From: a virus
Strand: one strand, 5' to 3'
IMG/VR virus record: IMGVR_UViG_3300013132_000026
Coordinates: 1-64,000 of that record
Length of the DNA: 64,000 nt
Of this stretch, positions 2,987 through 57,398 are shown in pieces. The translations under genes were made by a program, and so were the position numbers. Below the pieces are notes generated by a model. It searched no databases, was not told the origin of the DNA, and saw only the letters and a list, made by a program, of their open reading frames with translations. Each line of letters opens with the position of its first letter. Within the stretch, counting starts at the first letter, position 1.

Positions 2987-3958
2987 ATGCCACTACTGCA
3001 AACTACAGCATCTGCATCTGCGCGCGGCTTTGGCTTCCTAGCTCGCAGCGCCGTGCCACTTGAGGTGAGCTATCTTGTCGTAGCTGGCGGAGGCGGAGCC
3101 GGTTCTGGCATGGGTGGCGGCGGCGGTGCTGGCGGGTTCAGGACGGCAACAGGATTCATAGTCTTTCGCGGAACGACGTACACTGTCACGGTAGGAGCAG
3201 GTGGAGCGGGAGCCTCAGCTGGTTTAGGAAACGTCGGATTTAGCGGAGGCGACTCAGTTTTCTCAACGATCACTTCAACAGGCGGTGGTCGCAGCGGTGC
3301 ATTCATCACAGCTGGCGCGTCAGGAGGTAGCGGCGGTGGTGGAGGTCAAGCACCGTCTGGAAGCGCCGGAGGAGCAGGCAACACGCCATCAACAAGTCCA
3401 TCGCAAGGAAGCAGCGGCGGAAATGGAACATCTGACTATGCTGCTACCGGAGGCGGTGGCGGGTCCGCTGGTGTTGGTCCCAACGGTGTAACAAATTCGG
3501 CAGGATTTGTTGGGGATGTTTATACAGTCTATGCGACCAGTGGCAGCGGTGGAGCAAAAACTGATAGCAACTACAGCGGCGGTAATGTAGTTTACTCAGG
3601 CGGCGGTGGTGGAGGAGCAAGAACCGATAGCAGTTCTACGCCGGGAGCTGAGTACGCTTACTATGGCACACAAGGCGCCGCCGCCCCCGGTGTCGGTTCT
3701 GGTTCTATAGGATCGAATAGTTCTTCTTACAATGCAGGGAGTCAAAACGGTCTTGCAAATCAAGGAATGGGCGGTGGCGGCGGTGGATACGACAGTATCG
3801 GCGGAGCTGGTCAAGGTGGCAATGGTGGATCTGGCCGCGTCGTAATCATTTATCCAGACACCTTTGACGCTGCGGCAACCTACAGCGGAGCAACTTATAC
3901 GGTATCTGGAGGCTTTCGTCGTTACGTCTTCGACTCATCCGGTTCAATTCGTTTCTAA
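2987..3958 (+). CDS. Glycine-rich domain virion/fibre protein
   Basis: ATG at 2987 follows the upstream stop; YLVVAGGGG...GGGGAGG...YTVTVGAGG...GGNGGSGRVVIIYP glycine-rich signature. Confidence 0.75.
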   Translation: MPLLQTTASASARGFGFLARSAVPLEVSYLVVAGGGGAGSGMGGGGGAGGFRTATGFIVFRGTTYTVTVGAGGAGASAGLGNVGFSGGDSVFSTITSTGGGRSGAFITAGASGGSGGGGGQAPSGSAGGAGNTPSTSPSQGSSGGNGTSDYAATGGGGGSAGVGPNGVTNSAGFVGDVYTVYATSGSGGAKTDSNYSGGNVVYSGGGGGGARTDSSSTPGAEYAYYGTQGAAAPGVGSGSIGSNSSSYNAGSQNGLANQGMGGGGGGYDSIGGAGQGGNGGSGRVVIIYPDTFDAAATYSGATYTVSGGFRRYVFDSSGSIRF

Positions 3959-3959
3959 C

Positions 3960-4316
3960 ATGGCCCACTTCGCAAAAGTTGAAAACGGAATCGTAACAAA
4001 CGTGATCGTAGCGGATCAGGAAGTTATTGATTCTGGAATTTTTGGTCATGACTGGGTTCAGACGTCATACAATACGATAGGCGGGCAACATCCAGAAGGC
4101 AGGCCGCTCCGTAAGAATTTCGCATCTGTTGGGTTTTCATACGATGCAACGCGCGACGCCTTCATACCTCCGCAGCCTTTTCCGTCTTGGACACTTAACG
4201 AAAACACTTGCTTGTGGGAACCACCGATTGCGTATCCTATAGGAGGTCCGCTGCACCATTGGGACGAAGAATCTCAATCTTGGATCAAAATTCCTTTCCC
4301 GTCTGTAAGCCAATAA
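3960..4316 (+). CDS. Conserved phage protein that typically follows Gly-rich fibre genes (chaperone-like)
   Basis: MAHFAKVENGIVTNVIV...WVQTSYNT...LRKNFAS.G..YD..RDAFIPPQPFPSWTLNE.TC.WEPP; true start at ATG 3960. Confidence 0.7.
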   Translation: MAHFAKVENGIVTNVIVADQEVIDSGIFGHDWVQTSYNTIGGQHPEGRPLRKNFASVGFSYDATRDAFIPPQPFPSWTLNENTCLWEPPIAYPIGGPLHHWDEESQSWIKIPFPSVSQ

Positions 4317-4319
4317 ATC

Positions 4320-4469
4320 ATGGCAACTCTATCGAACACCATCAAGCCGACCAATGTTCTGACAGCGACCAGCACCGCGTGGGTGTCCTACCGCCAAGCC
4401 CTCCGCGACGTTCCTTCGCAACAAGGTTTTCCTTGGAGCGTTGTCTGGCCAACTGAACCAAATTCTTAA
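4320..4469 (+). pseudogene. 49-aa chimeric remnant ORF (fibre-like N-terminus fused to the chaperone C-terminus)
   Basis: Translates to MATLSNTIKPTNVLTATSTAWVSYRQALRDVPSQQGFPWSVVWPTEPNS. The 3' half is a near copy of 1323-1397. Confidence 0.55.
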
Positions 4470-4479
4470 TTTCTAAACT

Positions 4480-5224: not shown

Positions 5225-6601
5225 ATGGCCGCGAGTAAAGAAGGTTTAATCGACAATATCAACTGCAAACTAACTGCGGGTGGACTTACGGATATGCAAG
5301 CTTCGCAGCTTGCGGGCGCGGCGCAAGCTTTGTGCTGCTCGTCATTTTATGCGGTTGCTTGTGCGGCTTGTTTGCCAAATGCGGCGCTGAATAAGGGAAG
5401 GTTCGTTTACGTTCAAGACACTGGAAGATATACATATAGTAATGGGACAAGTTGGACAAATGAGTTTTGTTCTGCTATAACAGTGGCAAATTTATGGGCA
5501 TGGGGAAATAATGGCAGCGGTCAGCTTGGAACCGGAACAACAACAAGCGCCGCCTCACCAACGACAACTGCTGGCGGCGGCACTAATTGGTGTCAAATTT
5601 CTACGGCCAGAGGTCCAACTTATAATTTCTCAGCTGGCGTAAAGACAGACGGGACTTTATGGACTTGGGGATACAATACATACGGATCGCTAGGTGACGG
5701 AACAACCACGAATCGGTCTTCGCCAGGAACAGTTGCAGGAGGCGGAAGTACTTGGTGCCTAGTAAAATTAGGAGGCCTCTCCTCGGCAGCAGTCAAGACG
5801 GACGGAACTCTTTGGACTTGGGGATATAATGGCAATGGAATATTGGGAACGGGAACAACCACGGCTCGGTCTTCGCCAGGAACGGTTGCTGGAGGTGGCA
5901 CAACTTGGAAAGATGTTTCATTAGGCGGCGGACTTTTCATTTTCAACCATGCAATGGCAGTAAAGACCGATGGAACTTTATGGACTTGGGGAATAAATGG
6001 ATATGGTCAGCTTGGAACTGGAAATACTACAGCAAGATCTTCTCCTGGCACTGTAGCTGGAGGAGGCTCAACTTGGTGTGGTGTGGCCACGACAAACCAT
6101 TACTCGGCAGCGGTCAAGACGGACGGTACGCTATGGACGTGGGGAACTAACGGATATGGTCAGCTTGGAGACGGAACAACGACGAGTCGTTCATCGCCAG
6201 GAACAACTGCTGGTGGAGGTAATACTTGGTGCGCAGTTTCAGCTGGGCAGCTATATGTGGCTGCTTTAAAAACTGATGGTACGCTATGGACTTGGGGAAA
6301 TAACGGATATGGTCAGCTTGGAGACGGAACAACGACAAGCCGTAGATCGCCAGGAACTACGGCTGGAGGCGGAACAACTTGGTGTCTTATTTGCGCTGCC
6401 GAATGTGCTATGGGTGCCGTTAAAACAGACGGAAGTCTTTGGTTATGGGGACAAAATTGTTGCGATAAATTTGGAGACGGATCATCATCAAATCGCTGTT
6501 CTCCAGTCTCTTTGGCCGCTCCATCTGGAACTTCTGGGTGGAAATCTGTAGCTCCTAGTCGTCAGTTTACTATGGGCATAGCAAACCCAACTGGATTCTA
6601 A
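5225..6601 (+). CDS. RCC1/BLIP-II beta-propeller repeat protein 1 (putative receptor-binding or decoration protein)
   Basis: About 7 repeats of [41 protein letters not shown]. Confidence 0.85.
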
Positions 6602-6612
6602 TATTTAATTTC

Positions 6613-7932
6613 ATGAACGTCTCAAATTTAGAGTTAATTCTTGTTCAAAAAATTAGCAATTCAACTTCAACGTTGGATACGCTGATTTACTCTAAAGCTT
6701 TGCAAGAATTGAAGACTGGTACAATTACAGTTGTAAATACAACTGCCGATTTGCCGAATCCAAACACAGCTTTCATTGGACATTTGTTTTACGAAAAGAC
6801 TACCGAGGCAATGTATATTGTTGACAAGTTAGGCTATGCAAAAAAAATACCGATAGAAAGAAGTTTATACACTTGGGGAAATAACGGATATGGTCAGCTT
6901 GGAGACGGAACAACGACGAGTCGTTCATCGCCAGGAACAGTGGCTGGACCTAAAGCGGACTGGATTGCGGTAAGTTCTGGGCGTGTTGTAACGGCTGCGA
7001 TTAAAATTGACGGTACGCTATGGACTTGGGGGGGTAATAATGTCGGCCAATTAGGAGACGGAACAACGACGAGTCGTTCCTCACCAGGAACAGTGGCTGG
7101 AGGCGGAAGTACTTGGTGCTCGGCTTCTTCTGGTCACTGTCATACCGCTGCCGTTAAAAGCGATGGAACTTTATGGACTTGGGGATACAATTCATGGGGA
7201 ATGCTAGGTGACGGAACAACGACAAGCCGTAGATCGCCAGGAACTACGGCTGGAGGCGGAACAACTTGGTGCGCCGTAAGTGCTGGTCGTTGTTATACCG
7301 CTGCCGTTAGAACCGATGGTACGCTATGGACTTGGGGAGTAAATGGATATGGTCAGCTTGGAGACGGAACAACAACGGCTCGGTCTTCGCCAGGAACAGT
7401 TGCAGGAGCTGGAACAACTTGGTGCTTGGCTTCTTCTGGTTTCTTTCATACCGCTGCCGTTAAAAGCGATGGAACTTTATGGACTTGGGGAAATAATGGC
7501 AACGGTCGCTTAGGAGATGGAACAACCACGAATCGGTCTTCGCCAGGAACAGTTGCAGGAGCTGGAACAACTTGGTGTGGTGTGGCCACGACAAACCATT
7601 ACTCGGCAGCGGTCAAGACGGACGGTACGCTATGGACGTGGGGATACAATGCATACGGATCGCTAGGTGACGGAACAGTCACGGCTCGGTCTTCGCCAGG
7701 AACTACGGCTGGAGGCGGAACAACTTGGTGCGCCGTAAGTGCTGGTCGTTGTTATACCGCTGCCGTTAAAACCGATGGTACGCTATGGACTTGGGGAATA
7801 AATGGATATGGTCAACTTGGAACTGGAAATACGACACAGCGTTCATCGCCAGGAACAGTGGCTGGAGGAGGAACAACTTGGAGTAAAGTGAGTGCTGGAT
7901 ACTTTCATACTGCCGCGATTGGACCTCTCTAA
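6613..7932 (+). CDS. RCC1/BLIP-II beta-propeller repeat protein 2
   Basis: About 7 RCC1 repeats after an ~85-aa N-terminal domain. Confidence 0.85.
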   Translation: MNVSNLELILVQKISNSTSTLDTLIYSKALQELKTGTITVVNTTADLPNPNTAFIGHLFYEKTTEAMYIVDKLGYAKKIPIERSLYTWGNNGYGQLGDGTTTSRSSPGTVAGPKADWIAVSSGRVVTAAIKIDGTLWTWGGNNVGQLGDGTTTSRSSPGTVAGGGSTWCSASSGHCHTAAVKSDGTLWTWGYNSWGMLGDGTTTSRRSPGTTAGGGTTWCAVSAGRCYTAAVRTDGTLWTWGVNGYGQLGDGTTTARSSPGTVAGAGTTWCLASSGFFHTAAVKSDGTLWTWGNNGNGRLGDGTTTNRSSPGTVAGAGTTWCGVATTNHYSAAVKTDGTLWTWGYNAYGSLGDGTVTARSSPGTTAGGGTTWCAVSAGRCYTAAVKTDGTLWTWGINGYGQLGTGNTTQRSSPGTVAGGGTTWSKVSAGYFHTAAIGPL

Positions 7933-8576: not shown

Positions 8577-9938
8577 ATGGCGCTTCTTAACACAGGATGT
8601 TTAATCTCAACGATTCAGGCAGACGTGACCGGAATAACAACTGGTTATGCGGCGGAATGCTTTGCGGTGCTTGCTGCTGCCGTTGATAGCGCAACGCAAG
8701 ACCGTTGCGTTACTGTACCAACGAGCGGTTCGTTGCCGAGCCTTTATCCTACGCAAACAATTCCGCAAGGCCAAGTGATGTTTGTGGAGGATGTGGGCGT
8801 TCCTGTAATCGCGGCGAGTGGAAAGTGGATAGGGTTCGACCAGAGAGCGTTTAGATATGACTTCCCAACAAAAACATTATATACTTGGGGGTGCGGTAAT
8901 GCGCTTGGAGTCGGAGCTAATACAAGTCGATCCTCACCTGGAACAACGGTTGGCAATATCGTAACTTGGAGTTCTGTATCTGCTGGGCAAGATGCAGCCG
9001 CTGGAATTAAAACTGACGGTACATTATGGACTTGGGGCGTTGGAAATTATGGCATGCTGGGAAATGGAGCGGGGTATACGACAAATTCTCCAGGAACAAC
9101 TGCTGGAGGCGGAACTAACTGGTGTCGAATTTCAGTAGGAAGCGCTCATATGGCAGGCATCAAAACTGATGGCACCCTATGGACTTGGGGATATAATGGC
9201 AGTGGTCAGTTAGGAACTGGAAATACAACATCTCGTAACTCTCCTGGTACAGTCGCTGGAGGTGGATCAACGTGGTGTCAGGTTTCGGCGGCAAGAGCTT
9301 ACACTGTAGCTGTAAAAACAGATGGTACATTTTGGAGTTGGGGGGCAAATGGATATGGTCAACTCGGGAACGCGACAAATACAAATCGATCATCGCCTGG
9401 GACTCTCTCTGGAGGTGGAACTATATGGTGCAAGGCTATTGCTAGTAGTATGTCGTGTCATACCGCTGGATTAAAAACAGACGGGACAATTTGCACTTGG
9501 GGGGCGGGTGGATATGGAAGATTGGGAGGTGGCTCAACAGCTAACATAAACGCACCAAGCGCTGTTTCTGGAGGCGGAACAACTTGGTGCGATGCAGCTG
9601 TAGGATCTAATTTCACTGTGGCGTTAAAAAGCGATAATACTCTTTGGACTTGGGGACATAATGGATATGGAACATTGGGAACGGGAACAACCACGAATCG
9701 GTCTTCGCCAGGAACAGTGGCTGGAGGCGGAAGTACTTGGTGCTCGGCTTCTTCTGGTCTCTCGCATACCGCTGCCGTTAAAACCGATGGAACTTTATGG
9801 ACTTGGGGCTGCAATGGCAACGGTCGCTTAGGAGATGGTACAACAACTAATAGATCGTCTCCTGGCACAACAGCGGGCGGAGGTACGACTTGGAGTGCAG
9901 TTGGCGCTGGTCAACTTTATTCTCTAGGCTTAAGATAA
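8577..9938 (+). CDS. RCC1/BLIP-II beta-propeller repeat protein 3
   Basis: About 7 RCC1 repeats. Confidence 0.85.
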
Positions 9939-20274: not shown

Positions 20275-23200
20275 ATGGCAAAAGGAATCCAAGTACCCGT
20301 AACGCAGACTGGGCTAAGTCAGTCTATTAATCAAGCCGTTAAGAAAGTAGGGCCGATTAATGTACCGATTAACGTCAATCCCAATGCGTTCAAGAACCTT
20401 TCACAGCCACTTGGTAGAATCACGGGTCTTGCCAGCGAGTTTGAAAAGTCAATTGCGGCGTCTAATGCGCGTGTTATCGCATTCGGCGCGTCAGTAGGTA
20501 TCATCAATGGCTTTCAGAACGCCCTTTCTCAACTTGTAAAAACGGGCATTGAAGTTCAAAAAACTCTTGCCGATATTTCTGCTATCAGTGGGGCAACTGG
20601 CGTTGAGCTTTCTAAGCTCGCAGATGGTATTTTCGATGTTGCCAAAAATACGGGTCAGTCATTCAAAACGGCATCTGAAGCTGCACTAGAGTTTTCTCGC
20701 CAAGGTTTGGCGTTAGAAGAAACGATCAAGAGAACAAACGATGCGTTAACACTGAGCCGCTTTACTGGTTTAAGCGCAGCCGATTCGGTAGATACTCTAA
20801 CTGCCGCATTTAACTCGTTCCAAGAGTCTGGAGTCACTACGGCAGAAATTCTGAATAAGTTAGTCGCAGTTGACTCGGCTTATGCAGTTTCTGCTGCTGA
20901 CCTTGCAAAAGCTATTTCTCGCGTAGGTTCAGTAGGTATCGAGGCTGGCGTTTCGCTAGATGAACTTAATGCTGCGGTAACGGCAGTTCAGCAGAGAACT
21001 GCGCGTGGTGGTGCAGTTATTGGTAACGCATTCAAGACGATTTTTACAAACCTTAGATCCGAGAATGCGATCAAGGCTTTGCGCGATATTGGAGTAGAGT
21101 CTCTTGACCTTCAGGGAAATTTAAAGCCTTCGCTACAAGTTATTAAAGAACTTGCGGTCGCCGTGCAAGGTTTAGGAGAGGGTGAACGTGTTCAGATTTT
21201 AGAAACGATCGCTAGTAAGTACAACATTAACATTTTGTCTGCACTTATTGGCGATTTGACGGATAAGCAGAGTGCATTTACTGGAGCGCTGGAAAAGAGC
21301 GCCAATGCAGCGTCAGAAGCTTACGATAGACAAAAGCAGTTAAACGAAACTTTGGCGGCGGCGATTAACAATACGACCGTTTCCGTAACGCAACTTTTCA
21401 ACAAGCTCTCAGAAATTGGAGTAAACGAAAATCTAACTGCGCTGCTGAAGTTTGTAAACGATTTACTATCTGGTTTCAATAAGCTGCTCGACTCTGAAAG
21501 CGTCGGCGGAAACATTGCGAAGGGTTTGATCAAGGGCATCAGCGATGTATTTTTCACCGTTGGTCTTCCAATCATTGCGGCCATCTTCGTAAAACTGACT
21601 CGCGATATTGCTCAGTTCGGTATCGAGTCTTTAAAAACTATTCTCGGAATCAATCAACAGGTGCGCGAGCGTCAGGCTCTTGAACAAGCCGTAGTAAATA
21701 CGCTAATTAAAGATCAGCAAGTAATGGCTACGATTCTTGCTCTGAGTGGAGACAGGGCAAAGCAAGAGCAGTATTTACTTAATGTTTACAATCAGCAGAT
21801 TGCCGCACTACAAAAGGTTCAGAGCATCGCACAATCTGTTGCTCCTGCTCTTCAAGGCGCTGGACTTAGCGCGACATCTGGTCAAGTTCGCAGACGCGCA
21901 GCTGGTGGTTATCTGCCAAGTCAAGAAGCCTCCGATGTTCGTCGCGGTGTTGGCGGCGCAAGTCCATCCTCAAAAGTAGTTTCGATTCCAAATTTCGCAT
22001 TTGGCGGCGGTAAGCACGGGACAATGATCGCCAATACGAGCGAGTATATTGTTCCTAATTTTGCGAACGGTGGGTCGGCAATCTTTAATCCTGATATGGT
22101 TAAGGCTTATGGATTGCCAGCGGGAGCCAAGAAGATCAATGCGTCTGGCGGCTATGTCCCGAATTTTGCTAGATATGTTTATGATGCTGACCGTATCGTA
22201 GCAGATAAAAATGCCTTATTAAAGGCAATTTTAGCTTCTAGAGCGAAAAAGAATTTGATTGTCGGACCAGCCGGAGCCGGTAAAAGTACTTATGGCGGAG
22301 GGCTTGGATCGTTCATAACGAACGTTGCTCAACTAGGCGATGCTACTGAAATTGATATTTTATCTAGCGCGGGCAGAACAAAGGAGGGGGGATTTTCGAA
22401 AAATTTCCAAGAACTTGTAAACGCCGTAAACGTTTCTGGAGGCAAAGTTTCTTATCTATATGCTAGTAATATGGATATCCTTTCTCGCCGCTATGGAAGA
22501 ACAGAAAATGCTATTCAAGAAGGAGATTTGAGAAGTAAAAAGCAAATTGTAGGCACAATTTATGCGCCATTAAATCAATTTGACTTTATTTCAAAGATGA
22601 AAGGAAGTTCTAAAAACTTCCAGATGACTCGCGGATCTGGCGGCTTTATTCCAAATTTTGTAAATGAGCTACCCGGTAAAACGCCTGCATATAGTCAGCC
22701 AAAAACTAAACCAAAAGGTTCTAATTTAGATTCAGTTACAGTAGACGCAAGATGGTCGGGAGGAGCAGTTATGCTTTTGCCGTCCAGCAAGCAAAGACAG
22801 AAATTTTTAAAGCAAGGATACAGTACAGCGCCAAGTGCAAACGTAAGCAAAAAGGAAGTTCTACCTGATGGGAGAAGAATTTCGGGTGTTCTTTTTGATG
22901 CTTTCGCTGTAATACCAAGTGAATTAAAAAGTAGAAGTGGACAAGAAATTGCAAATATTGAAGAACGAGTTAAAAAGGTTGTTTATCAAACTGGATCTGA
23001 AATAATAGCAGATTTTGATCCACTACAAAGACCGCAAGTAGGAGCAGATGAGTTTGCAAGAGTATATGATAAAAAAGGTGGTGCCGCTGGTGCCGCATCC
23101 GCAGTTGCTGGATCGATTTTTGAAGCTGCCGTTGACTATGCATTAAATCCACAAAAAGCAACGAATGTACAAAGTACGCTCGATGTTCCTAGGTTATCAC

Positions 23201-26200
23201 CAGAATTAATTAAAGCCTTTGGAATTACCACTCCTTATGGAACATCGTCTGGAGGCGATTATAAAATTAGTGCCGAGAGAGCACAAGCGTTTGCAGACCA
23301 AATTATTAGAAATAAAGTGTATCAGCCGCCAGCTCCAAAAGCTGCTGCGTCTACTGGTTACGTTCCAAATTTTGCGAAACAATCGGCGCTTTCTGATGCT
23401 ATCGGACGTGAAATTGGCGCTGGAGTTAATCCAAGCCAAATCCGAGTCACGCAAGACGGAAGACTCAGAAACTCGCAAAATCCAAATGGCCTTGCAGTAA
23501 TCAACACAAGAGACGAGCCAAACGGAAAAGTTCCAAACTTTGCCAGAGAAAGATATGCCGCTGGAGAAATTGTAAATGGGAAAAAGGTTGGTGGACAGTT
23601 TAAACCAGCATCGGCAGCTTCTGGTCGGACCGCGAGTGCAACTACGCCACTAACAGATCAAACTGCAAAATTGTTTTTGGCATTTTCTGGACTAACTCTT
23701 GTTTCTTCGACTCTACAATCAACATTCAAAGATACTGAATCTAGTATAGCTAAATTCGCCACTGCAACATCTAATGTTGTTCAAACGCTTTCAAGTGGTG
23801 CGCTGCTTGGTAATTTAGTGCAGCAAACTGGATTGTCTGGTTTGGCTAAAAGAGGAGGTGTTCTTGGAAGTGTTGGACGTATAGCTGGAAATGCTGGAAT
23901 AATTGGCGCAATCGGTGGCGCTGGTATAGGTATTTATCAAGAAATTCAGGCAGCAAGAGAAGCGGAACGTCAACGACCAATTTTAGCTGGAGAAGAAGGA
24001 GCTGGTCGTAGAATCGCAGATATCGCCGCTCAAGAAACCAATCCTGAGTCAATCAGAGAACAGCTACTTAAAGATTTCCAAGCTGGACAAGCAGAATTTG
24101 AAAGAATTCAAGCTCAATTACAACAAGGAAGCGAAAGAGCTGCGGCGGCTCGGCTTAATGTCGCCGCTTTTGGAACTGGTGGAGAATTCGACCCACAGCT
24201 TCAAGAAAATGTAAAATTTTTAGAAGAAAGAAAAAAACTGGAAGAAGAGCTTAATACTTTACTGGGAGGTCAGCAAAAATTTTTGCAACAAATTGGAGCA
24301 ACGACAAATGATATAGAAAATGCTGCCAAGAGAAAAGAAAAATTAGAAAAAGAAGCGAATACCGAAGCTGAAAGACGCATAAATCTAGAGCAGGCTTTTG
24401 AAAAAATTGCTTTATCTATTTTAAAGGGCGATAATGAACGTTTGAAAGCGCGTGCGCAAATTGCCGCGCAAGATATTAAAAATGCAGCCAATCTTAATAG
24501 TTTTCAAAAACAAGAATTAGAGTTTAATAGAAAAATTCAAGACTTTGAAGAAGAGTCAACGCAGAAGCAAAGAGACCTTTTAAATTTAACTGTTCAGCAG
24601 TTAATTAAGGGCGGAAGTTTAGCGAGCGTAACTGAAGAACAAGCGAATAGGCTCAAGCAGATACTTGAAAGTGGAACAGAAATTGCCGATAACTCGCAAT
24701 TAATTGCAGATCTTGGAATTAAAAATGCAACTGTAGTTAATGAAGAAATTGAAAAAGTATCGAACAAAATAGCTTTGCAAAAGGAAGAGACTCGTGGGCT
24801 AATAGAGCGTTTTTCAATTACTCAAAGAGCCTCAATTGAGGCGTCTAAACAGTTAGGTTTTATTGAAGCTCAAACAAGAGCTTTAAATGCTCAAGCTGAA
24901 ACTGCAAGGGAAATTGAAATAATAGAAGCTAAAAGAAGTCGCTTAAGATCGGGAAAGGCTCAAGAATTAAATATTGAAAATATAAGATCAGGTATAGCGA
25001 CAAGAGGCATAGCTTCTCCGACGCAAACTAGACAGCTTCTAGAAGCTGAAAAAAATCTTAATTTTGTAACTAAAAGAAATAATGTAGAAGAAACTTATAG
25101 GCGCTCTCAAGAAGAAGGCTTTAACGCTTTAAGAAATGCATATATTGAACAAGTAAATGGTTCTGAATTCATATCTGACGCAGAGCAAAAACGGGCGGAA
25201 AGTTTATTGCAATCAGCTAAAACAGCAGAAGATTTACAAAAGATTTATGCTGCATTTGACCCTAGTTTTTCTGGAATTGGGACAAACGAAAATCGAGCAT
25301 TAGAATATCAATTGTCTTTATTTGAACAGTCAAAAGCTATATTAGAAGAAAGAAAAAAAATAATAGACGCTAATATAAGTTTATCGAAAGAGGAAAGAGA
25401 CCTCGAAATTCAAAAGCTAAATATTGAAATTAAGCGCAGAGATCGCGTATTAGAAATTGCGAAAATCAGAGAAAGCTCTAGGCTAAAAGCTGGGGTTGCT
25501 ACCGCGCTTGACGACTTAGAGGCTGAATCAGAAAACTTTTATGAAACACTCGGCAACAGAACTACAATAGCTTTTAGGGATGGCTTAACAGACGCATTGA
25601 GTGCGGCTATTTCTCAAACTGACGATCTTGGTGATGCGCTGCAAAATGTTGCGCGTAATTTCTTGCAGACGATTCAGCAGGCATTTTTGCAACAAGCTTC
25701 GGGGCAAATTGTGCAGTTAATCGGAAAGAGCTTCAATTTTGCCAATGGTGGAATCGTAAAAAAATACGCTGGAGGCGGAAAGGTAGTTGGAGGAAGCGGC
25801 TATAAAGATGACGTTCCAGCGATGCTCACAAGCGGAGAGTTTGTGATGAGAAAGTCTGCCGTGCAGAAGTATGGCATGGAAAATCTTGAAAGAATGAACA
25901 ACGGCGGGATCTTCCTGCCCGGTGTTCGTGGCGCTGGTGCAATCTCTGGCTACGGCGACATCACAAAGTTCGCAAAGCAGACAACTACTAGCGGCGCAAC
26001 AGACGTTATGATGGGCGGCGCGTCTTCGGCATTCATTAACCTTGAAGATCAAAGCGCAAGGCTTTCTCGTTTTGGACTTCTAAACGAAGATACGATTAAT
26101 CAAGAAATTAGAGCGGCACAAGAACAGGGCTTAAATCTTATTAGAGAAAGAGAAGCTTATAGAACGGCACAGAGAAAAGCGTTCCAGCAACAGCTGGTTA

Positions 26201-26850
26201 GCACTTTAGCTTCTGCCGCAATAAGCTTCGGAGTTGGAAAATTGACCGCTCCAAAGGTAACGGGCCTTCCCGCATCTTTATCAAAAACAGGAACTCCATT
26301 TGCTGCAAACGCTGGCCCAGCATCATTTGGCAATGTCGCTTTATTAAAGGGCGCTCCAATTAAATTTAGTGGCGGAATTGGTTCATTTATGAATCCAGTT
26401 GGCGCAAAGCCAATTCCATTTCGTGCTTATGGTGGATTGATGCGCCGCTACGCTGCTGGAGGTCCAACTGACGACATTCCTGCTCTATTGATGGGCGGCG
26501 AATATGTCATGAGCCGTCAATCGACGCGCAAATACGGCAAGCAGTTCTTCGATGCGATGAACCAAGGTAGAGCGCCAAGATTCGCAGAAGGCGGGGTGGT
26601 CGGTGGAGCTAACGGAACTGAACTTGGGGATAAGTTTGACAAGCTCTCTACCAAACTCGAAACGACCGCAGCTTCGAACATTAGCATCAACATTAATGTC
26701 ACGAACGGCGGATCGTCAGAAACTCAAACTCAAGGCGACACGAATCGCGGCGGCATCGATTACAAGAAGATGGGCGATCAGATTCGCCAAGTTGTTATCC
26801 AAACGATCAACGAAGAAAAACGCCTCGGTGGTTCACTGAGAAGTAGATAA
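20275..26850 (+). CDS. Tape measure protein (TP901-like core) with inserted enzyme-like modules
   Basis: N-terminal TMP core (EFSRQG...LNKLVAVD...RGGAVIGNAFKTIF); long coiled-coil; two C-terminal DDxPAxLxxGExVM repeats and FAxGG motifs; internal GPAGAGKST. Confidence 0.9.
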   Translation: MAKGIQVPVTQTGLSQSINQAVKKVGPINVPINVNPNAFKNLSQPLGRITGLASEFEKSIAASNARVIAFGASVGIINGFQNALSQLVKTGIEVQKTLADISAISGATGVELSKLADGIFDVAKNTGQSFKTASEAALEFSRQGLALEETIKRTNDALTLSRFTGLSAADSVDTLTAAFNSFQESGVTTAEILNKLVAVDSAYAVSAADLAKAISRVGSVGIEAGVSLDELNAAVTAVQQRTARGGAVIGNAFKTIFTNLRSENAIKALRDIGVESLDLQGNLKPSLQVIKELAVAVQGLGEGERVQILETIASKYNINILSALIGDLTDKQSAFTGALEKSANAASEAYDRQKQLNETLAAAINNTTVSVTQLFNKLSEIGVNENLTALLKFVNDLLSGFNKLLDSESVGGNIAKGLIKGISDVFFTVGLPIIAAIFVKLTRDIAQFGIESLKTILGINQQVRERQALEQAVVNTLIKDQQVMATILALSGDRAKQEQYLLNVYNQQIAALQKVQSIAQSVAPALQGAGLSATSGQVRRRAAGGYLPSQEASDVRRGVGGASPSSKVVSIPNFAFGGGKHGTMIANTSEYIVPNFANGGSAIFNPDMVKAYGLPAGAKKINASGGYVPNFARYVYDADRIVADKNALLKAILASRAKKNLIVGPAGAGKSTYGGGLGSFITNVAQLGDATEIDILSSAGRTKEGGFSKNFQELVNAVNVSGGKVSYLYASNMDILSRRYGRTENAIQEGDLRSKKQIVGTIYAPLNQFDFISKMKGSSKNFQMTRGSGGFIPNFVNELPGKTPAYSQPKTKPKGSNLDSVTVDARWSGGAVMLLPSSKQRQKFLKQGYSTAPSANVSKKEVLPDGRRISGVLFDAFAVIPSELKSRSGQEIANIEERVKKVVYQTGSEIIADFDPLQRPQVGADEFARVYDKKGGAAGAASAVAGSIFEAAVDYALNPQKATNVQSTLDVPRLSPELIKAFGITTPYGTSSGGDYKISAERAQAFADQIIRNKVYQPPAPKAAASTGYVPNFAKQSALSDAIGREIGAGVNPSQIRVTQDGRLRNSQNPNGLAVINTRDEPNGKVPNFARERYAAGEIVNGKKVGGQFKPASAASGRTASATTPLTDQTAKLFLAFSGLTLVSSTLQSTFKDTESSIAKFATATSNVVQTLSSGALLGNLVQQTGLSGLAKRGGVLGSVGRIAGNAGIIGAIGGAGIGIYQEIQAAREAERQRPILAGEEGAGRRIADIAAQETNPESIREQLLKDFQAGQAEFERIQAQLQQGSERAAAARLNVAAFGTGGEFDPQLQENVKFLEERKKLEEELNTLLGGQQKFLQQIGATTNDIENAAKRKEKLEKEANTEAERRINLEQAFEKIALSILKGDNERLKARAQIAAQDIKNAANLNSFQKQELEFNRKIQDFEEESTQKQRDLLNLTVQQLIKGGSLASVTEEQANRLKQILESGTEIADNSQLIADLGIKNATVVNEEIEKVSNKIALQKEETRGLIERFSITQRASIEASKQLGFIEAQTRALNAQAETAREIEIIEAKRSRLRSGKAQELNIENIRSGIATRGIASPTQTRQLLEAEKNLNFVTKRNNVEETYRRSQEEGFNALRNAYIEQVNGSEFISDAEQKRAESLLQSAKTAEDLQKIYAAFDPSFSGIGTNENRALEYQLSLFEQSKAILEERKKIIDANISLSKEERDLEIQKLNIEIKRRDRVLEIAKIRESSRLKAGVATALDDLEAESENFYETLGNRTTIAFRDGLTDALSAAISQTDDLGDALQNVARNFLQTIQQAFLQQASGQIVQLIGKSFNFANGGIVKKYAGGGKVVGGSGYKDDVPAMLTSGEFVMRKSAVQKYGMENLERMNNGGIFLPGVRGAGAISGYGDITKFAKQTTTSGATDVMMGGASSAFINLEDQSARLSRFGLLNEDTINQEIRAAQEQGLNLIREREAYRTAQRKAFQQQLVSTLASAAISFGVGKLTAPKVTGLPASLSKTGTPFAANAGPASFGNVALLKGAPIKFSGGIGSFMNPVGAKPIPFRAYGGLMRRYAAGGPTDDIPALLMGGEYVMSRQSTRKYGKQFFDAMNQGRAPRFAEGGVVGGANGTELGDKFDKLSTKLETTAASNISININVTNGGSSETQTQGDTNRGGIDYKKMGDQIRQVVIQTINEEKRLGGSLRSR

Positions 26851-51795: not shown

Positions 51796-52414
51796 TCTTT
51801 TAAAACAGAAAATTAACCAAAAGTTTGTTGTCTTCGATACAGAAACCGAAGGACTGTCTTTGACCTCTTCGCGTCCTTGGCAACTTTCTTGGATCGTTTG
51901 TCAAGGCGATCAAATTTTAGAGAGACACGACGAGTTTGTGAAATACGATGATTTGAACGTTTCAGAGGATGCGGCTAAAGTTACAGGATTTAATTTTGCA
52001 AATTACTCTGCAAAAGCAAAAGACCCGATGGATGTTTGGAGAAAGTTTGCCAAGTATCTTTACGATGACCAGTACATTTTCGTCGGGCATAATATTCTCA
52101 ACTTCGATATTTACATCCTCAATACAATGATGCGCGGGCTTGGACTTAAAAATGATTGGCGTTTCGTGTCAAGAATGATCGATACCCGTTCTCTTGCCGT
52201 TGCAATGTTTAAGAAGATCAAGCGAAACGGCGATTTGATTCCTTGGCAAATTAAGCTTATTAACGTTCGCGAAAAAGGGCTAAAGGCTAGTCAAGGATTC
52301 CTTTTGAAGCATTTTGCCGTTGATCACGATCCGTCGAAACTGCACAACGCTCTGTACGACATTGAAATGAATTATATTTTATTCAGAAAACTTATCGCGG
52401 AGGTCGAAGTATGA
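51788..52414 (+). CDS. DEDDh 3'-5' exonuclease (Pol III epsilon-like)
   Basis: VFDTETEGL; VGHNILNFD; IDT; LHNALYD. Confidence 0.9.
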   Translation: MNNLLKQKINQKFVVFDTETEGLSLTSSRPWQLSWIVCQGDQILERHDEFVKYDDLNVSEDAAKVTGFNFANYSAKAKDPMDVWRKFAKYLYDDQYIFVGHNILNFDIYILNTMMRGLGLKNDWRFVSRMIDTRSLAVAMFKKIKRNGDLIPWQIKLINVREKGLKASQGFLLKHFAVDHDPSKLHNALYDIEMNYILFRKLIAEVEV

Positions 52415-54981
52415 GTCTTTTGCTCGAAACATTCAAAAGATACGAACATCCAGTACCGCCCGGCGTTCGACTCCCAGAAATTAAAATCGACGCCAAATAC
52501 TACGAAACACTTGGCATAGACAGTACTGTTTCTAATTTTGAGTTCTTGCGTCAACTTTGTTTGCGTGCAGTTGTCGCTAAAGGAATCGATAAACTTCCAA
52601 ATAAAAAAGAATACTACGAGCGAGCCAAGATGGAACTTGCCGTATTCAACGAACTCGGCTTCGTTGACTATATTTTGCTTAATTGGGACATTCTGAAATA
52701 CGCCCACGAAAACAATATCCCGACTGGGTACGGTCGCGGCTCTGCCGCTGGATCTCTGATTCTTTATTTACTTTCGGTCACTAACGTTGACCCAATCAAA
52801 AACGGCTTGTTCTTTGAGCGTTTCGTGTCCAAGAGTCGCGCAAAGAAGATCGTTGTTGATGGAATTACTTATCTCGATGGTTCGCTGATGCCAGATGTTG
52901 ATAACGATATCGAATTTTCTAAGCGTCACGAAGTTATCAATTATATCAAGACGAAGTACTCCGGTAAGACTTGCAAAATTCTTACCATGAACACGCTAAC
53001 TGGTAAACTATGCATCAAAGAGTGCGCGAAGATTATCGCCGAGATGAGCGAAGACGAAGTAAATGCGATTAGCGACGTTATTCCGAAACAGTTCGGCAAA
53101 GTATTCCCTCTCAAGGATGCCTATGACCAAAGCGAACAATTCAAAGCTTTTTGCGACAAGAATACCAAGGTATTCAAAATAGCAAAGAAAATCGAAGGGC
53201 TAAATAAAAATACGGGCGTTCACCCGTCTGGCATTTCGATTTCTTACTACGATAACGAAGAGATTATGCCTTTGCAAAAGACTGGCGACGGAGAAGTTGT
53301 GTCGGCTTACGACATGAACAATATTTCCGAGATCACCGTAAAGTTCGATATTCTTGGTCTCAGAACACTTACAGTCGTTTATGATACTTGCCAACGTCTC
53401 GGCTTAGACTTCAAGAATCTCGATTTCGATAAACCTGCTACTTACAAGTTCCTTCAAGACTTGCAGAATCCAAAGGGCTTGTTTCAAATTGAGGCGAATA
53501 CGAACTTCCATGTCTGCCGCAAAGTGAAGCCTCGCAATATGCTTGAACTTGCTTGTGTTCTTTCTCTTGCTCGACCGGGCGCTTTGGACTTCGTAGAACA
53601 GTATGCTCGTTACGTTGAGACTAATCAACTCCAATCAGTCCATCCATTTTTTGATGATATTTTGAGCGTAACTGGAGGTATCCCGATCTTTCAAGAACAG
53701 TTGATGAAAATGGTTGTTAAGGTTGGATTCACGCTCGATGAAGCAGAAACTGTTCGCCGTATCGTTGGCAAAAAGAAGGTTAGCGAAATGCCCGCTTGGC
53801 AAGAAAAAATTCGCAATAAAGTTGCCGAGAACGATCTAGAATCTCAAGTGGCGGACGTTCTTTGGAAGGTAGCTGAAGATAGCGCGAACTATTCGTTTTG
53901 CGCCGCCCATGCCTTTTCCTACGGAACCCTAAGCGCATTAACAACTTACCTAAAATTTAATCATCCAAAAGAATTTTTCTTAGCTCTCTTAAAGTCTTCA
54001 AAGCACGAACCAGATCCGCACGAAGAGATCGAGACGATCTCTCAGGAACTCAGTTTCTTCGGTATCCGACTGCTTCCTCCCGACTTAGCAAAGTCTCACG
54101 CAGATTTTGAGATCGAGGGAGATAATATCCGATTCGGATTGAACGCGATTAAGGGCGTATCAGATAAGGTTCTTGAAAACCTTCTTACGTTTCGAGAAGC
54201 CGAGTTTAAAAACAAAATTGATTGTTTCGACGGGGCGAAAGAAGCTGGCGTAAATATCGGAGTTTTATCTTCTTTGATTCAAGCAGGAACGTTATCGAGC
54301 TTTAGTGAAAAGCGCTGCCGTCTCGTTCTTGAGGCTCAGAGCTACAATATTCTTACCGATAGAGAAAAGCGGAATGTTAAGCTTGTCGCTGATAAATATC
54401 AACACGACGCTCTAACTGCGATTTCAGAAATGGCGAAAGCTAAGGCTGTCGGCGACGACAATAAGCCGTTCATGACTGAAAAACGCTTTAATACATTTAA
54501 AACCAAATACGAGTCTTACAAAAAGATTTATGACATGAACAAGCAATACGAGAAGTTCGCCAATTGGTTTTTCGAAAAGCGATTGCTTGGCTACAGCTAC
54601 ACTTACAAGCTTAAAGAAGTTTTTCATCAAGACGAGCACGAACGACTATTCACGACTTACGAAGTTTCTCAAGCCCAAGTTCGAGATGCTGTAAAAATGG
54701 TTGGAGTCGTAAAAGAGGCTCGTAAAAAAGTGAGCAGAGCAGGCAGACCTTACTTATTGGTTAAAATTGCTGACGAGTACGGTCAAACCGTATGCCGTCT
54801 AACCGATGGCGGTCGCGACGACAAGTTTACGATGTACTACGAAGGAGGAGGCAAAACTCCAAAAGAAGACGATATCGTTGTCGTCTACGGCTCTAAAGCC
54901 GAGGACTCTATTTTCTTAAATGGCTTGACAATACTTTCGGAAAGGATCTATACTAAGCTATCGCAGATCGAATCTGTGTAA
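52411..54981 (+). CDS. dnaE: DNA polymerase III alpha, catalytic part lacking the PHP domain
   Basis: GRGSAAGS; FERF; PDVDND; GVHPSG; KFDILGL; FQEQ; IRFGL..IKG; C-terminal OB fold. Confidence 0.92.
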   Translation: MSLLLETFKRYEHPVPPGVRLPEIKIDAKYYETLGIDSTVSNFEFLRQLCLRAVVAKGIDKLPNKKEYYERAKMELAVFNELGFVDYILLNWDILKYAHENNIPTGYGRGSAAGSLILYLLSVTNVDPIKNGLFFERFVSKSRAKKIVVDGITYLDGSLMPDVDNDIEFSKRHEVINYIKTKYSGKTCKILTMNTLTGKLCIKECAKIIAEMSEDEVNAISDVIPKQFGKVFPLKDAYDQSEQFKAFCDKNTKVFKIAKKIEGLNKNTGVHPSGISISYYDNEEIMPLQKTGDGEVVSAYDMNNISEITVKFDILGLRTLTVVYDTCQRLGLDFKNLDFDKPATYKFLQDLQNPKGLFQIEANTNFHVCRKVKPRNMLELACVLSLARPGALDFVEQYARYVETNQLQSVHPFFDDILSVTGGIPIFQEQLMKMVVKVGFTLDEAETVRRIVGKKKVSEMPAWQEKIRNKVAENDLESQVADVLWKVAEDSANYSFCAAHAFSYGTLSALTTYLKFNHPKEFFLALLKSSKHEPDPHEEIETISQELSFFGIRLLPPDLAKSHADFEIEGDNIRFGLNAIKGVSDKVLENLLTFREAEFKNKIDCFDGAKEAGVNIGVLSSLIQAGTLSSFSEKRCRLVLEAQSYNILTDREKRNVKLVADKYQHDALTAISEMAKAKAVGDDNKPFMTEKRFNTFKTKYESYKKIYDMNKQYEKFANWFFEKRLLGYSYTYKLKEVFHQDEHERLFTTYEVSQAQVRDAVKMVGVVKEARKKVSRAGRPYLLVKIADEYGQTVCRLTDGGRDDKFTMYYEGGGKTPKEDDIVVVYGSKAEDSIFLNGLTILSERIYTKLSQIESV
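54925..54954 (+). promoter_or_regulatory. sigma70-type promoter inside the dnaE 3' end, upstream of the Clp ATPase
   Basis: TTGACA-N18-TATACT. Confidence 0.55.
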
Positions 54982-54983
54982 AA

Positions 54984-57398
54984 ATGAATAAAGTGCAACA
55001 AATCAACTTCACTCCTAGGGCAACGCGGGCGCTAGAAATCTCCAAGCAGCGCTGTTTGGAGAATAACTATCATGAGATTACCGAAGACTTTTTGCTCCAC
55101 GCAATTTTGTTTTCCGAATCAATGATTGTTAATACGGTGTTTAGCGCCTTAAATATTCATACTAAACAAGTTGTGATTGCGCTATCGAAGACACTTCCGT
55201 CAAATAAAAAGAAACTGCCAAGCTCAGATATTCCGTTTGGTTCCGTCTCTGCCGAGGTTATTAAAAACTCTCAAATTATTTCTGAAGCGTTTAAGCAAAA
55301 CTATACTGGCGTAGAGCATATCTTTTTATCGCTTTTGAGGCACTCTGAACTTGTAAAAAAGTTCTTAAAAAAGAACTCGATTGACGTTGGCTTCTTGACA
55401 GATAAAACGGAAAAAGAGTGCGAACTCATTTCGAATCCGATTAAAAAGCCCGCGCCGCCTCAGTCTGACAGAACTAGCAACGAAAGCTTAATTTCATCTC
55501 ACTGCGTAGACTACAATGAAAAAGCTTCCAAGGGAGAATTTGACCATATATCTTTTCGCGAAAAAGAAGTCGAGCAGATGTTTGAAATCCTTTGTCGCAA
55601 GCAAAAGCGGAATCCGATGCTTATCGGAGATGCTGGAGTAGGCAAGAGTGCCGTTGTAGGGCTAATCGCAAAAAACATCATTTCGTGCAATTGCACAGAG
55701 TTTCTTTTGAATAAGAAGGTTTTATCTCTTGATCTTGGGGCTCTTATCTCTGGCACAAGGCTTCGCGGCGAGTTTGAAGAGAAGCTTGTAAAAATTATGA
55801 CGGAAATCAAAGCTATGGGCAATGTAATTTTGTTCATTGACGAGATTCATAATATTATTGGACTCGGCAATGACGCGGGTCAAATGGACGGAGCGAATAT
55901 CCTAAAGTCCTATTTTACTGCCGAAGACCTTTCGTTTATCGGGGCGACAACGCAACAAGAATACGACAAGTACTTTGCGAAAGACTCGGCTATGTCTCGG
56001 CGCTTCGAGAACGTCTTTGTTCGTGAGCCAACTAAAGACGAGACTTTCGGCATTTTGAAGAACGTGAAATCATTCTATCAGACGTTCCATATGATCGAGT
56101 ATCCAAATTCGGTCCTGATGAACATCGTTAATGTTTGCGATAAGTATATGCCAAATAGACGCTTCCCAGATAAGGCTATTGATCTTCTCGATCAGATCGG
56201 AGCTAAAGTTAAAATTCGAGGTTTTGCGCGTCCAGACGAAATTAAAAACATTGAAAAACTAATCATTCAATTCGAAAAGTTTGCTCCCGATGACGTGAAG
56301 AAAAACCACTTGCCTAACTTAATAAGAGATTACGAATCAAAATACAATGTCTGGGTAGAAGCCGCTAAGGAAAAAAAGGTTCGAGCGAAGAAGAAAGACG
56401 TTTACAAGGCTTTGTCAGATAAGCTCGGCAAAGTCATTGACTCAAATTCTGACAACGACGGAATCAAGAATATTTACAGCAACCTGCAAAAGCACGTCTT
56501 TGGACAAGACAAGGCTTTAAAGAAGATTTCCGATTGTATCTTGCGTTCATCATTTGGCTTGTCAAAGAATAGTCGCCCGCTTGGGAATTTTATGTTTATT
56601 GGCCCAACTGGCTCAGGAAAGAGTCATTTGGCTCGAACGCTAGCGAAACAGGCTTTCGGGAGCGATTCTAATCTTTGCGTAATAGATATGTCAGAGTTTA
56701 TGGAAAGTCATTCGGTTTCGAAACTGATTGGCGCTCCCCCCGGTTACGTTGGGTGTAATCAAGTAAGTGTTTTAACCGCTCATTTAACTCGCCACCCATC
56801 GTCAGTATTTCTTTTTGACGAAATCGAGAAAGCTCACCCAGACATAGTTAATGTTTTGCTCCAGATCATGGATAGCGGACAACTCACAACTTCTGACGGG
56901 GAAAAGCTTTCGTTTAAAAATTCAATCATCATTATGACCGGAAACGTTGGCTATCAAATCAACGATAATAAACGAATGGGTTTTATGGCGACTGCTCAAT
57001 CAACGCCTACAAAAGATACTGTTCTAGAAAGCTTAAAGAAGTTCTTCCGCCCAGAATTCTTGGCCCGCTTAAATGATATTGTTATTTTCGACGAACTTAG
57101 CGAAGAATCGCTGATCAAAGTGGTCGAATCCGAGTTTTCCCAGATTCAAGCATCGCTGCTTGAGAGCGGAACGAAAGTTTCTTTCTCGCCGGAAGTTATC
57201 GACTTTATTTTGCAGAAAACAAAAGATTCTAGCACGGGAGCAAGAAAAATCGTTTTTTACGTCGAAAATGAGATCAAAACCAAAATTGTAGACATCTTGC
57301 GGGCAAATACATACAATAAAATCAAGATCTCCATTAAAGACGGAGAGTTGACCATCAATGGAAAAACGAAGAAACTTCTTGCGACACACAGTATCTAG
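54984..57398 (+). CDS. ClpA/B/C-family Hsp100 AAA+ ATPase
   Basis: Clp-N repeats; GDAGVGKS, LFIDEIH, GATT..EY, RRF, PDKAIDLLD; second NBD GPTGSGKS, LIGAPPGYVG, FDEIEKAHPD, FRPEFLARL. Confidence 0.92.
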   Translation: MNKVQQINFTPRATRALEISKQRCLENNYHEITEDFLLHAILFSESMIVNTVFSALNIHTKQVVIALSKTLPSNKKKLPSSDIPFGSVSAEVIKNSQIISEAFKQNYTGVEHIFLSLLRHSELVKKFLKKNSIDVGFLTDKTEKECELISNPIKKPAPPQSDRTSNESLISSHCVDYNEKASKGEFDHISFREKEVEQMFEILCRKQKRNPMLIGDAGVGKSAVVGLIAKNIISCNCTEFLLNKKVLSLDLGALISGTRLRGEFEEKLVKIMTEIKAMGNVILFIDEIHNIIGLGNDAGQMDGANILKSYFTAEDLSFIGATTQQEYDKYFAKDSAMSRRFENVFVREPTKDETFGILKNVKSFYQTFHMIEYPNSVLMNIVNVCDKYMPNRRFPDKAIDLLDQIGAKVKIRGFARPDEIKNIEKLIIQFEKFAPDDVKKNHLPNLIRDYESKYNVWVEAAKEKKVRAKKKDVYKALSDKLGKVIDSNSDNDGIKNIYSNLQKHVFGQDKALKKISDCILRSSFGLSKNSRPLGNFMFIGPTGSGKSHLARTLAKQAFGSDSNLCVIDMSEFMESHSVSKLIGAPPGYVGCNQVSVLTAHLTRHPSSVFLFDEIEKAHPDIVNVLLQIMDSGQLTTSDGEKLSFKNSIIIMTGNVGYQINDNKRMGFMATAQSTPTKDTVLESLKKFFRPEFLARLNDIVIFDELSEESLIKVVESEFSQIQASLLESGTKVSFSPEVIDFILQKTKDSSTGARKIVFYVENEIKTKIVDILRANTYNKIKISIKDGELTINGKTKKLLATHSI

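Follow-up and report, generated by a model that had tools for sequence, protein, structure and literature searches.

Why would the tape measure protein (TMP) of a phage tail carry a P-loop module that resembles a small kinase? The question is raised by a 64,000-nucleotide stretch of viral DNA (the window in what follows), the first 64 kb of IMG/VR record IMGVR_UViG_3300013132_000026, in which one long gene of the tail block encodes a TMP with an internal Walker A motif. An earlier note on this DNA, made from the letters alone, had read the surrounding module as a small P-loop kinase with a lid and proposed that it is an injected enzyme modifying nucleotides or RNA ends, possibly to counter nucleotide-signaling or tRNA-cleaving host defenses. 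We found that the module is a P-loop nucleoside triphosphate (NTP)-binding domain of an undescribed sequence family, conserved among many TMPs and present or absent as a unit between repeated linkers.

The source record comprises 127,126 bases and is estimated to be 88% complete; near-identical DNA is present in lake and freshwater metagenome runs, one of which (X1) spans the entire window with a single contig and may be the source. The TMP matches Pfam family PF10145 at residues 123–312 with 95.2 bits against a cut-off of 33.2 (E = 6.3e-27), and among 18 matches in PHROGs, 13 carry the annotation "tail length tape measure protein" (best E = 1.8e-42). Downstream, the tail block continues with genes for a minor tail protein (phrog_14) and a protein resembling a tail needle. 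Family score, great length and position in the tail block all fit, and by these sequence criteria the predicted product is a TMP of the TP901/PhageMin_Tail type. PF10145 was the sole family in a Pfam scan of the whole protein, which detected no HAD or other phosphatase and no metallopeptidase processing domain.

Conservation of the P-Loop Module

The Walker A motif GPAGAGKST is at positions 22264–22290, and KVSYLYASNMDILSRRYGR is found as quoted in the earlier note (coordinates of features in Table 1). The Walker A pattern alone proves little, because its loose form [AG]xxxxGK[ST] occurs eight times in the long open frames of the window (27,136 residues), and the case against chance comes from its conservation. 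A search with TMP residues 560–860 returned 657 proteins at E ≤ 1e-3, and the module was present in 111 of the 120 TMP relatives among the matches listed, at 40–79% identity. When 1.84 billion cluster representatives were searched exhaustively with phmmer, 62 proteins matched at E ≤ 1e-3, 41 at E ≤ 1e-10 and 23 at E ≤ 1e-30; 42 of the 62 representatives, each standing for a cluster at 50% identity, were at least 900 residues long. The set used for conservation consisted of 168 collected proteins, 159 with the module and 142 with the module at full length, with identity down to ~28%; the collected set included 129 module-bearing proteins of TMP length.

Eight residues (D637, D639, G667, G669, K670, R742, D751 and R753) are invariant in all 142 full-length copies, and at P665, T672, S697, R738 and R739 no more than four copies differ. 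The Walker A motif is thus retained in the homologs, as the P-loop reading of the earlier note had required, with its two glycines and its lysine kept without exception. In comparisons with nine close viral contigs, the nonsynonymous divergence (dN) of the module was 0.16–0.26 and the synonymous divergence (dS) was saturated; dN/dS was 0.055–0.17 in seven pairs and undefined in two. These codon comparisons show the module to be under strong purifying selection. Its conservation equals or exceeds that of the TMP core and is far above that of the coiled middle: relative P0005, for example, has 76% in the module, 70% in the N terminus and 28% in the middle.

An Optional Cassette between Repeated Linkers

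The module was said in the earlier note to be bounded by two PNF motifs, and these are indeed found at residues 629–631 and 793–795. PNF occurs six times in the TMP (residues 572, 594, 629, 793, 1031 and 1087) against an expectation of 0.14, a number reached in none of 20,000 shuffles, and the median count of PN[FY] in 134 collected relatives of TMP size is likewise six. The PNF-joined units form an N-proximal array at residues ~560–1095, lying between hydrophobic segments at residues 421–439 and 1203–1221. In its longer form, GG(Y/F)(I/V)PNF(A), the linker appears at six sites between window positions 21988 and 23541 and stands at every module border; in the protein it may act as a linker, a docking site or a cleavage site.

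The module is an optional cassette in the TMP. Proteins P0112–P0114, P0116 and P0119 are TMPs without exactly the PNF-to-PNF unit: their N termini are 81–97% identical to the window TMP (94–97% except P0119), their linkers are 93–96% identical, and the sequence ...GG(F/Y)IPNF runs directly into the next unit, which we call modB. At the DNA level, a contig identical to P0116 residues 1–648 (L100) matches the left flank of the window base for base up to TCTGGCGGCT and then has the PNF codons of the right junction of the window (TTTATTCCAAATTT), not those of the left. We take the right-repeat codons at this single junction to be the trace left by gain or loss of the cassette through recombination between the two 25-nt direct repeats that encode the linkers (Table 1). 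Elsewhere among the relatives, the start of the module ranges from residue 566 to residue 1650. The remark in the earlier note that a P-loop kinase is not a normal TMP component agrees with these comparisons, in that near-identical TMPs lack the module and we found no literature account of such a TMP domain.

The L100 contig ends a few bases past the PNF codons. In a related high-depth population (X4), contigs stop at position 22167 and start again at 22636, with the module uncovered; as no contig joins across, this is no evidence of a module-less form. The assembly breaks at PNF junctions in L100 and X4 (window 22113–22167 and 22636–23394) would fit mixed cassette content.

Stand-Alone Homologs

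The module also exists outside TMPs. Free proteins of 147–159 residues start within a few residues of the module start and end at its last strand, and they contain neither PNF nor a signal sequence. They fall into at least 12 clusters and are complete open reading frames (ORFs): an 84-kb contig bears one whose start and stop codons are recorded, and another cluster has 10 members and is found on up to 17 contigs. At one locus (L044), the gene (3945–4472, minus strand) stands among small ORFs beside endonuclease VII and a sigma-factor-like gene. At another (L144, 7306–7848, minus strand), on a 44.6-kb viral contig, it is 6–10 kb from protease, terminase and portal genes, with a sigma-factor-like gene, an unassigned ORF, a nucleotide-sugar epimerase and an ERCC4-type nuclease in between. 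Both of the stand-alone loci that we read thus have a small sigma-factor-like gene within a few kilobases (PHROG E = 1e-4 to 6e-4), a weak but repeated association.

A scan of viral contigs with an alignment of stand-alone forms (A2) found 11 relatives over most of the module, at 37–41% identity, and one match of 28 residues; the same scan with a single stand-alone protein (P0171) gave no match. In 185,579 species-representative genomes of GTDB, stand-alone protein P0162 matched 13 loci, all of them partial and centered on the P-loop (at most 59 query residues), and no true homolog was found. INPHARED/GenBank phage records gave no match to the module by tblastn or to the TMP gene by megablast.

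Predicted Fold and Profile Comparisons

We built an AlphaFold2 model of the module from a 25-sequence alignment (A1), including ~25 disordered flank residues. It has five strands, with a mean predicted local distance difference test score (pLDDT) of 83 and a predicted template modeling score (pTM) of 0.79. A P-loop fold is predicted: strand 38–43 leads into the Walker A loop at 44–49 and helix 50–57, with four further strands, and pLDDT exceeds 90 in this part. The beta strand that the earlier note had placed before the Walker A motif is thus borne out by the model. An extra N-terminal strand at model residues 12–17 carries the invariant YVYDxD, and a helix-loop at 112–134 holds the invariant arginines. 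Confidence is lower here (pLDDT 64 in block 121–130), which would fit a mobile lid. An arginine-bearing lid after strand 4 is a feature of P-loop kinases, and at the motif level the module has it, with R738, R739, R742, D751 and R753 invariant or nearly so on the predicted helix-loop.

In a Foldseek search against the Protein Data Bank (PDB), the best match had E = 1.9e-3, with none at E ≤ 0.001, and template modeling (TM) scores were 0.30–0.43. All matches with probability of ~0.85 or more were nucleotide or polynucleotide kinases: archaeal adenylate kinases, AK5, guanylate kinases, mammalian PNKP and the polynucleotide kinase (PNK) of Clostridium. ATP synthases, helicases and signal recognition particle (SRP) GTPases had probabilities of 0.1–0.3. 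The best TM score by query (TMq) was 0.43, to AK5 (2bwj), followed by 0.38–0.41 for PNKP and 0.39 for guanylate kinase. A viral structure library returned "AAA domain", zeta-toxin-domain, PNK and guanylate-kinase proteins (best E = 1.0e-3, TM ~0.4), and over the PDB and the viral models the high probabilities of kinase-type matches ranged from 0.85 to 0.99. As a control, the neighboring modB (pLDDT 80) was put through the same procedure and gave a best E of 0.73 and probabilities of at most 0.06; since an equally confident neighbor gave nothing, the kinase signal is not background. On the predicted model, the kinase class would be the best structural home for the module, an assignment that we regard as weakly supported.

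Sequence profiles gave sub-threshold matches. For the module in the window, all Pfam matches fell short of their cut-offs, AAA_30 coming closest (18.6 bits; cut-off 27), and kinase-type families (AAA_33, Zeta_toxin, ADK, SKI, AAA_17/18) did not appear among them. Over the 25 members of A1, no Pfam family was better than E = 3.4e-4; AAA_30 had a sub-threshold match in 24 members, and AAA_33 matched nine, with a best E of 0.0029 and over the P-loop only. The adenylate and shikimate kinase models of NCBIfam matched one member each (E = 0.002–0.0085). Profile searches with PHROGs, NCBIfam and the PDB gave no family over threshold, and the matches were confined to the P-loop. Matches in the ESM Atlas had scores of 0.77–0.81, to be taken as leads only, and some of the clusters carry AAA_33, SKI or Zeta_toxin.

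For a profile–profile comparison, a 112-sequence alignment of the module was compared by hhalign with alignments of four to five sequences of ADK, GK, TMK, AAA_33, AAA, MMR_HSR1 and RecA from five genomes. Over 13–33 aligned columns, the probabilities were 91% for GK, 80% for AAA, 69% for ADK, 53% for AAA_33, 33% for RecA, 14% for MMR_HSR1 and 4% for TMK. The calibration pairs ADK–AAA and GK–MMR_HSR1 both scored 95%; because of these scores, the comparison is unable to separate P-loop classes, and we rejected it as a class discriminator.

Proposed Function and Alternative Explanations

Our reading, held tentatively, is that the module is an independently folding and catalytically intact P-loop phosphotransferase, most probably of the nucleotide/polynucleotide-kinase class, carried as an optional cassette of the TMP and delivered early. 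In the N-proximal TMP, the cassette would stand among other units connected by GG(Y/F)(I/V)PNF linkers, would be gained and lost by recombination between the short DNA repeats encoding these linkers, and would not be required for tail length measurement. The P-loop and the DxD motif would bind Mg-ATP, and the gamma-phosphate would pass to an acceptor held beneath the arginine lid. The lid and the Ser-Gly after strand 2 resemble, as we take it, nucleoside monophosphate (NMP)-type kinases more than enzymes that require a general base. Since free homologs lack an export signal and the proposed reaction requires a nucleotide, the place of action would be the cytoplasm. The TMP of siphophages leaves the tail ahead of the DNA, and we infer that the array would therefore follow the membrane-active part and arrive just before the genome; the TMP-borne form would most likely travel in the tail and enter the host with the TMP. 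Once there, it might spend host ATP on the phosphorylation of a nucleotide, nucleic-acid end or other small acceptor and so aid early infection.

Several results weigh against this reading. The structural likeness to kinases is weak (TM 0.30–0.43; best E 1.9e-3 in the PDB and 1.0e-3 among viral models), and no solved kinase in the PDB reached TM ≥ 0.5 in the Foldseek search, where the disordered flanks of the model lower TMq. No kinase model of Pfam, NCBIfam or PHROGs is over threshold and the sequence matches span the P-loop only, and the hhalign scores are spread over kinase and other P-loop classes. A canonical Walker B (hhhhD/E) is absent after the Walker A motif, the invariant YVYDxD strand preceding it instead, and the residue after strand 2 is an invariant serine (Ser-Gly at this site). 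That a TMP segment reaches the cytoplasm is itself a supposition, a folded 17-kDa domain would have to fit the tail tube, and the enzyme might act during late TMP synthesis instead. For the small P-loop kinase with a lid proposed in the earlier note, what stands is that it is the best available reading, with kinases as the top Foldseek class and the lid arginines invariant or nearly so; the weak TM and E values, the lack of a kinase Pfam over threshold and the profile–profile comparison without class separation leave the class assignment partly supported.

The module could also be a P-loop NTPase other than a kinase, such as a small ATPase or GTPase switch or an AAA-like fragment, which by NTP hydrolysis serves the tail in the timing of TMP folding, chaperone release or TMP exit. 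The sub-threshold matches are mostly of AAA type (AAA_30 in nearly all A1 members, besides PhoH, clamp-loader and Dda-type PHROGs), AAA scored high in hhalign, and a helix precedes the P-loop strand, as is common in AAA+ proteins. Foldseek, however, gave low probabilities to ATPases, helicases and SRP GTPases and high ones to kinases, the module has neither an hhhhDE Walker B nor a conserved DxxG, its 154 residues are too few for an AAA+ core, and free homologs exist away from tail genes. Because near-identical TMPs do without it, the module is not part of the tail mechanism, and we consider a tail-serving NTPase unlikely. The residues N767-Q-F-D stand ~97 residues after K670, a spacing that we take to recall the NKxD motif of GTPases; the model places them between two helices and not after a strand, and a GTPase reading was set aside. 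Somewhat less probable again is the fusion of a cytoplasmic phage enzyme with the TMP, the enzyme working late in the producing cell, or lying idle in the virion, without being a delivered effector. Ordinary phage genes encode the free homologs, which have no signal peptide, ATP is available in the producing cell, and delivery is itself conjectural. Yet the fusion is old and widespread, with 129 carriers of TMP length and 42 of the 62 representative clusters at 900 residues or more, the module always sits in the same linker-bounded array, suggesting selection for a place in the virion protein, and a soluble late enzyme gains nothing from being tethered to a protein locked in the tail.

A more specific version of delivery, a 5'-polynucleotide kinase that repairs tRNAs cut by anticodon nucleases in the manner of T4 Pnkp, appears improbable. 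Mammalian PNKP, the Clostridium thermocellum PNK and viral PNK models are among the better Foldseek matches (TM 0.38–0.44, probability 0.85–0.96), but adenylate and guanylate kinases match equally well or better. Some polynucleotide kinases have a catalytic Asp after strand 2, where the module has Ser; its DxD motif lies 25 residues before the P-loop strand, inside the same small domain. The Pfam scan showed no 3'-phosphatase fused in the TMP, and the window contains no tRNA genes. With positive search controls, no Rnl2-type RNA ligase (PF09414) and no RtcB (PF01139) were found in the 127-kb record, itself 88% complete, a result that also counts against the kinase reading as a whole. Because neither is present in the record, the idea of tRNA or RNA repair raised in the earlier note is without support. 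A noncatalytic binder of nucleotides or phosphate, acting as a sponge for defense signaling nucleotides or as a structural plug, is slightly less probable still: phage nucleotide sponges are known and the domain is small, but the Walker A Lys and Thr, two Asp, and four Arg and an Asp in the lid are kept over 142 copies, a pattern typical of catalysis. That the Walker A motif arose by chance in a low-complexity TMP is hardly credible. The eight loose occurrences in the long frames of the window would allow it, but conservation refutes it, and purifying selection, the confidently predicted fold and the free homologs speak against it as well.

If the tentative reading of a delivered P-loop phosphotransferase is extended to the whole array, the TMP could be a plug-in delivery rack. 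In this extension, which we regard as doubtful, the PNF linkers would serve both as recombination joints in DNA and as release or docking sites in the protein, and phages would swap enzymes that act in the cytoplasm, among them the new family of ATP-dependent P-loop kinases and at least one unknown fold with an E...D...DxK pattern. The TMP would then be an injected multi-effector that pre-empts host defense before phage genes are expressed.

Relation to Known Systems

The small P-loop kinases, comprising adenylate and guanylate kinases, PNKP and Clostridium PNK, and the zeta-toxin/AAA_33 group, share with the module a core of strand, P-loop and helix in ~150 residues, an arginine lid-like segment and the absence of an hhhhDE Walker B. 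The module differs from them in its extra N-terminal strand-helix with the invariant DxD, in the Ser after strand 2, in its setting in a virion protein, in TM scores of just 0.30–0.43 and in having no hidden Markov model match over threshold.

To our knowledge, the enzymes known inside TMPs until now are cell-wall hydrolases that act outside the cytoplasm. The Tmp of mycobacteriophage TM4 contains muralytic motifs and pb2 of T5 contains a peptidase, and in relatives of the TMP studied here, lysozyme, chitinase-class and SLT domains are found at residues ~2000–2160, distant from the cassette array. Like the P-loop module, these enzymes are catalytic domains inside a TMP, dispensable for length and variable among relatives, if the module is catalytic as we suppose. 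Unlike it, they cut peptidoglycan outside the cytoplasm and without a cofactor, and in this family they are at residues ~2000–2160, whereas the P-loop module lies in the N-proximal array and, needing a nucleotide, would have to work in the cytoplasm. What is new here is thus a TMP-embedded enzyme of a nucleotide-dependent, cytoplasm-type class, drawn from an undescribed P-loop family; TMP-embedded enzymes as such were already known.

Other carriers of several domains offer partial parallels. Polyvalent proteins, as described by Iyer et al. (2017, PMC5512222), combine several unrelated effector-type domains in one polypeptide, which is believed to enter with the DNA and to work early in infection; in a term search of that text, "tape measure", "zeta toxin", "P-loop kinase" and "polynucleotide kinase" did not occur. 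The TMP array resembles them in joining unrelated effector-type domains in one chain and differs in having a TMP as carrier and PNF as joints and in having no processing metallopeptidase or typical anti-restriction or DNA-modification domains (PF10145 alone in Pfam). The nearest concept is that of the Sle1-type TMP-related effectors of actinobacterial contractile injection systems, which pair a TMP-like scaffold with an exchangeable, ejected functional domain (PMC13277306). These are cargo of bacterial injection systems, with C-terminal functional domains of other kinds, whereas here a working phage TMP has an internal P-loop cassette. Smug et al. (2023, PMC10684548) note the poor coverage of TMPs in domain databases and report that they were unable to confirm recent mosaicism in TMPs. 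In full-text searches, judged largely from abstracts, no account of a TMP with a nucleotide-binding or kinase domain came up.

A strongly conserved nucleotide-dependent enzyme in a TMP would imply one of two things: a portion of the TMP arrives functional in the host cytoplasm, or phages load the TMP with early-acting cargo. Both bear on the fate of the TMP during genome entry. The natural pairs of near-identical TMPs with and without the cassette, together with the free homologs, make the question directly testable. The analysis also defines a P-loop family outside all profile libraries, and the PNF motif, marking both domain borders and recombination points, is useful for annotating long TMPs.

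Features of the Array and Neighboring Genes

Table 1. Coordinates of the TMP gene and the features within it. Positions are those of the window; aa, amino acid residues of the TMP; AF2, AlphaFold2.
Feature	Position	Strand	Basis or remark
TMP gene, 2191 aa	20275..26850	+	One uninterrupted ORF; PF10145 and PHROG matches
Conserved TMP core (PhageMin_Tail), aa 123–312	20641..21210	+	Pfam PF10145
Hydrophobic segment, aa 421–439, upstream of the cassette array	21535..21591	+	Kyte-Doolittle mean 2.05 over 19 aa
Left 25-nt direct repeat, encoding SGGYVPNF; PNF codons 22159–22167	22144..22168	+	21/25 nt identical to right repeat
P-loop module, aa 633–786 (154 aa)	22171..22632	+	Conservation, AF2 model, dN/dS
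N-terminal strand YVYDAD with invariant D637 and D639; candidate metal-binding (Walker B-like) motif	22174..22191	+	Both Asp 142/142; strand at model residues 12–17
Walker A GPAGAGKST, aa 664–672	22264..22290	+	G667, G669, K670 142/142; T672 140/142; P665 139/142
Arginine-rich lid-like segment RRYGRTENAIQEGDLR, aa 738–753	22486..22533	+	R742, D751, R753 142/142; R739 141; R738 138
Right 25-nt direct repeat, encoding SGGFIPNF; PNF codons 22651–22659	22636..22660	+	Module-less relative carries these PNF codons at its single junction
modB, PNF-bounded, aa 796–1033	22660..23373	+	Invariant E950, D970, D995, K997 in 15 sequences; AF2 pLDDT 80
modC, aa 1034–1095, ending in the sixth PNF	23374..23559	+	43–100% identity in nearly all TMP-length relatives
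Glycine-rich hydrophobic segment, aa 1203–1221, downstream of the cassette array	23881..23937	+	Kyte-Doolittle mean 1.40 over 19 aa

The unit that follows the P-loop module, modB, is exchangeable, being 24–59% identical or replaced in relatives. By sequence, its residues E950, D970 and D995-x-K997 resemble the PD-(D/E)xK nuclease signature, and the unit may adopt a new fold or be a nuclease that has diverged strongly. There was no structural neighbor in the PDB (best E = 0.73) and no sequence match in Pfam, the Atlas or the PDB; with a confident model that has no PDB neighbor, an assignment as a PD-(D/E)xK nuclease is not supported. Next to it, modC is a unit of ~60 residues (SALSDAIGREIGAGV...GLAVINTRDEPNGKVPNF) with no assigned family; it seems to belong to the TMP core, in contrast to the neighboring cassettes.

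Near its C terminus, the TMP contains two copies of the motif (D)D(V/I)PA(M/L)L..GE(F/Y)VM.(R/K)....KYG......MN.G, at residues ~1840–1880 and ~2070–2110 (window ~25790–25910 and ~26480–26600). The motif also opens a short module-bearing protein (P0140), which hints at a common docking element.

Elsewhere in the window, an 804-residue double AAA+ chaperone of ClpA/ClpB type (54984–57398, plus strand; AAA_2 at 185.7 bits, AAA and ClpB_D2-small) is encoded directly after a DNA polymerase III alpha-type polymerase (52411–54981). Upstream of the tail genes, three consecutive genes (5225–6601, 6613–7932 and 8577–9938, plus strand) encode large RCC1-like beta-propeller proteins, the first two recognized by Pfam RCC1/WD40_RLD and the third by PHROGs, which may be fiber or receptor-binding proteins.

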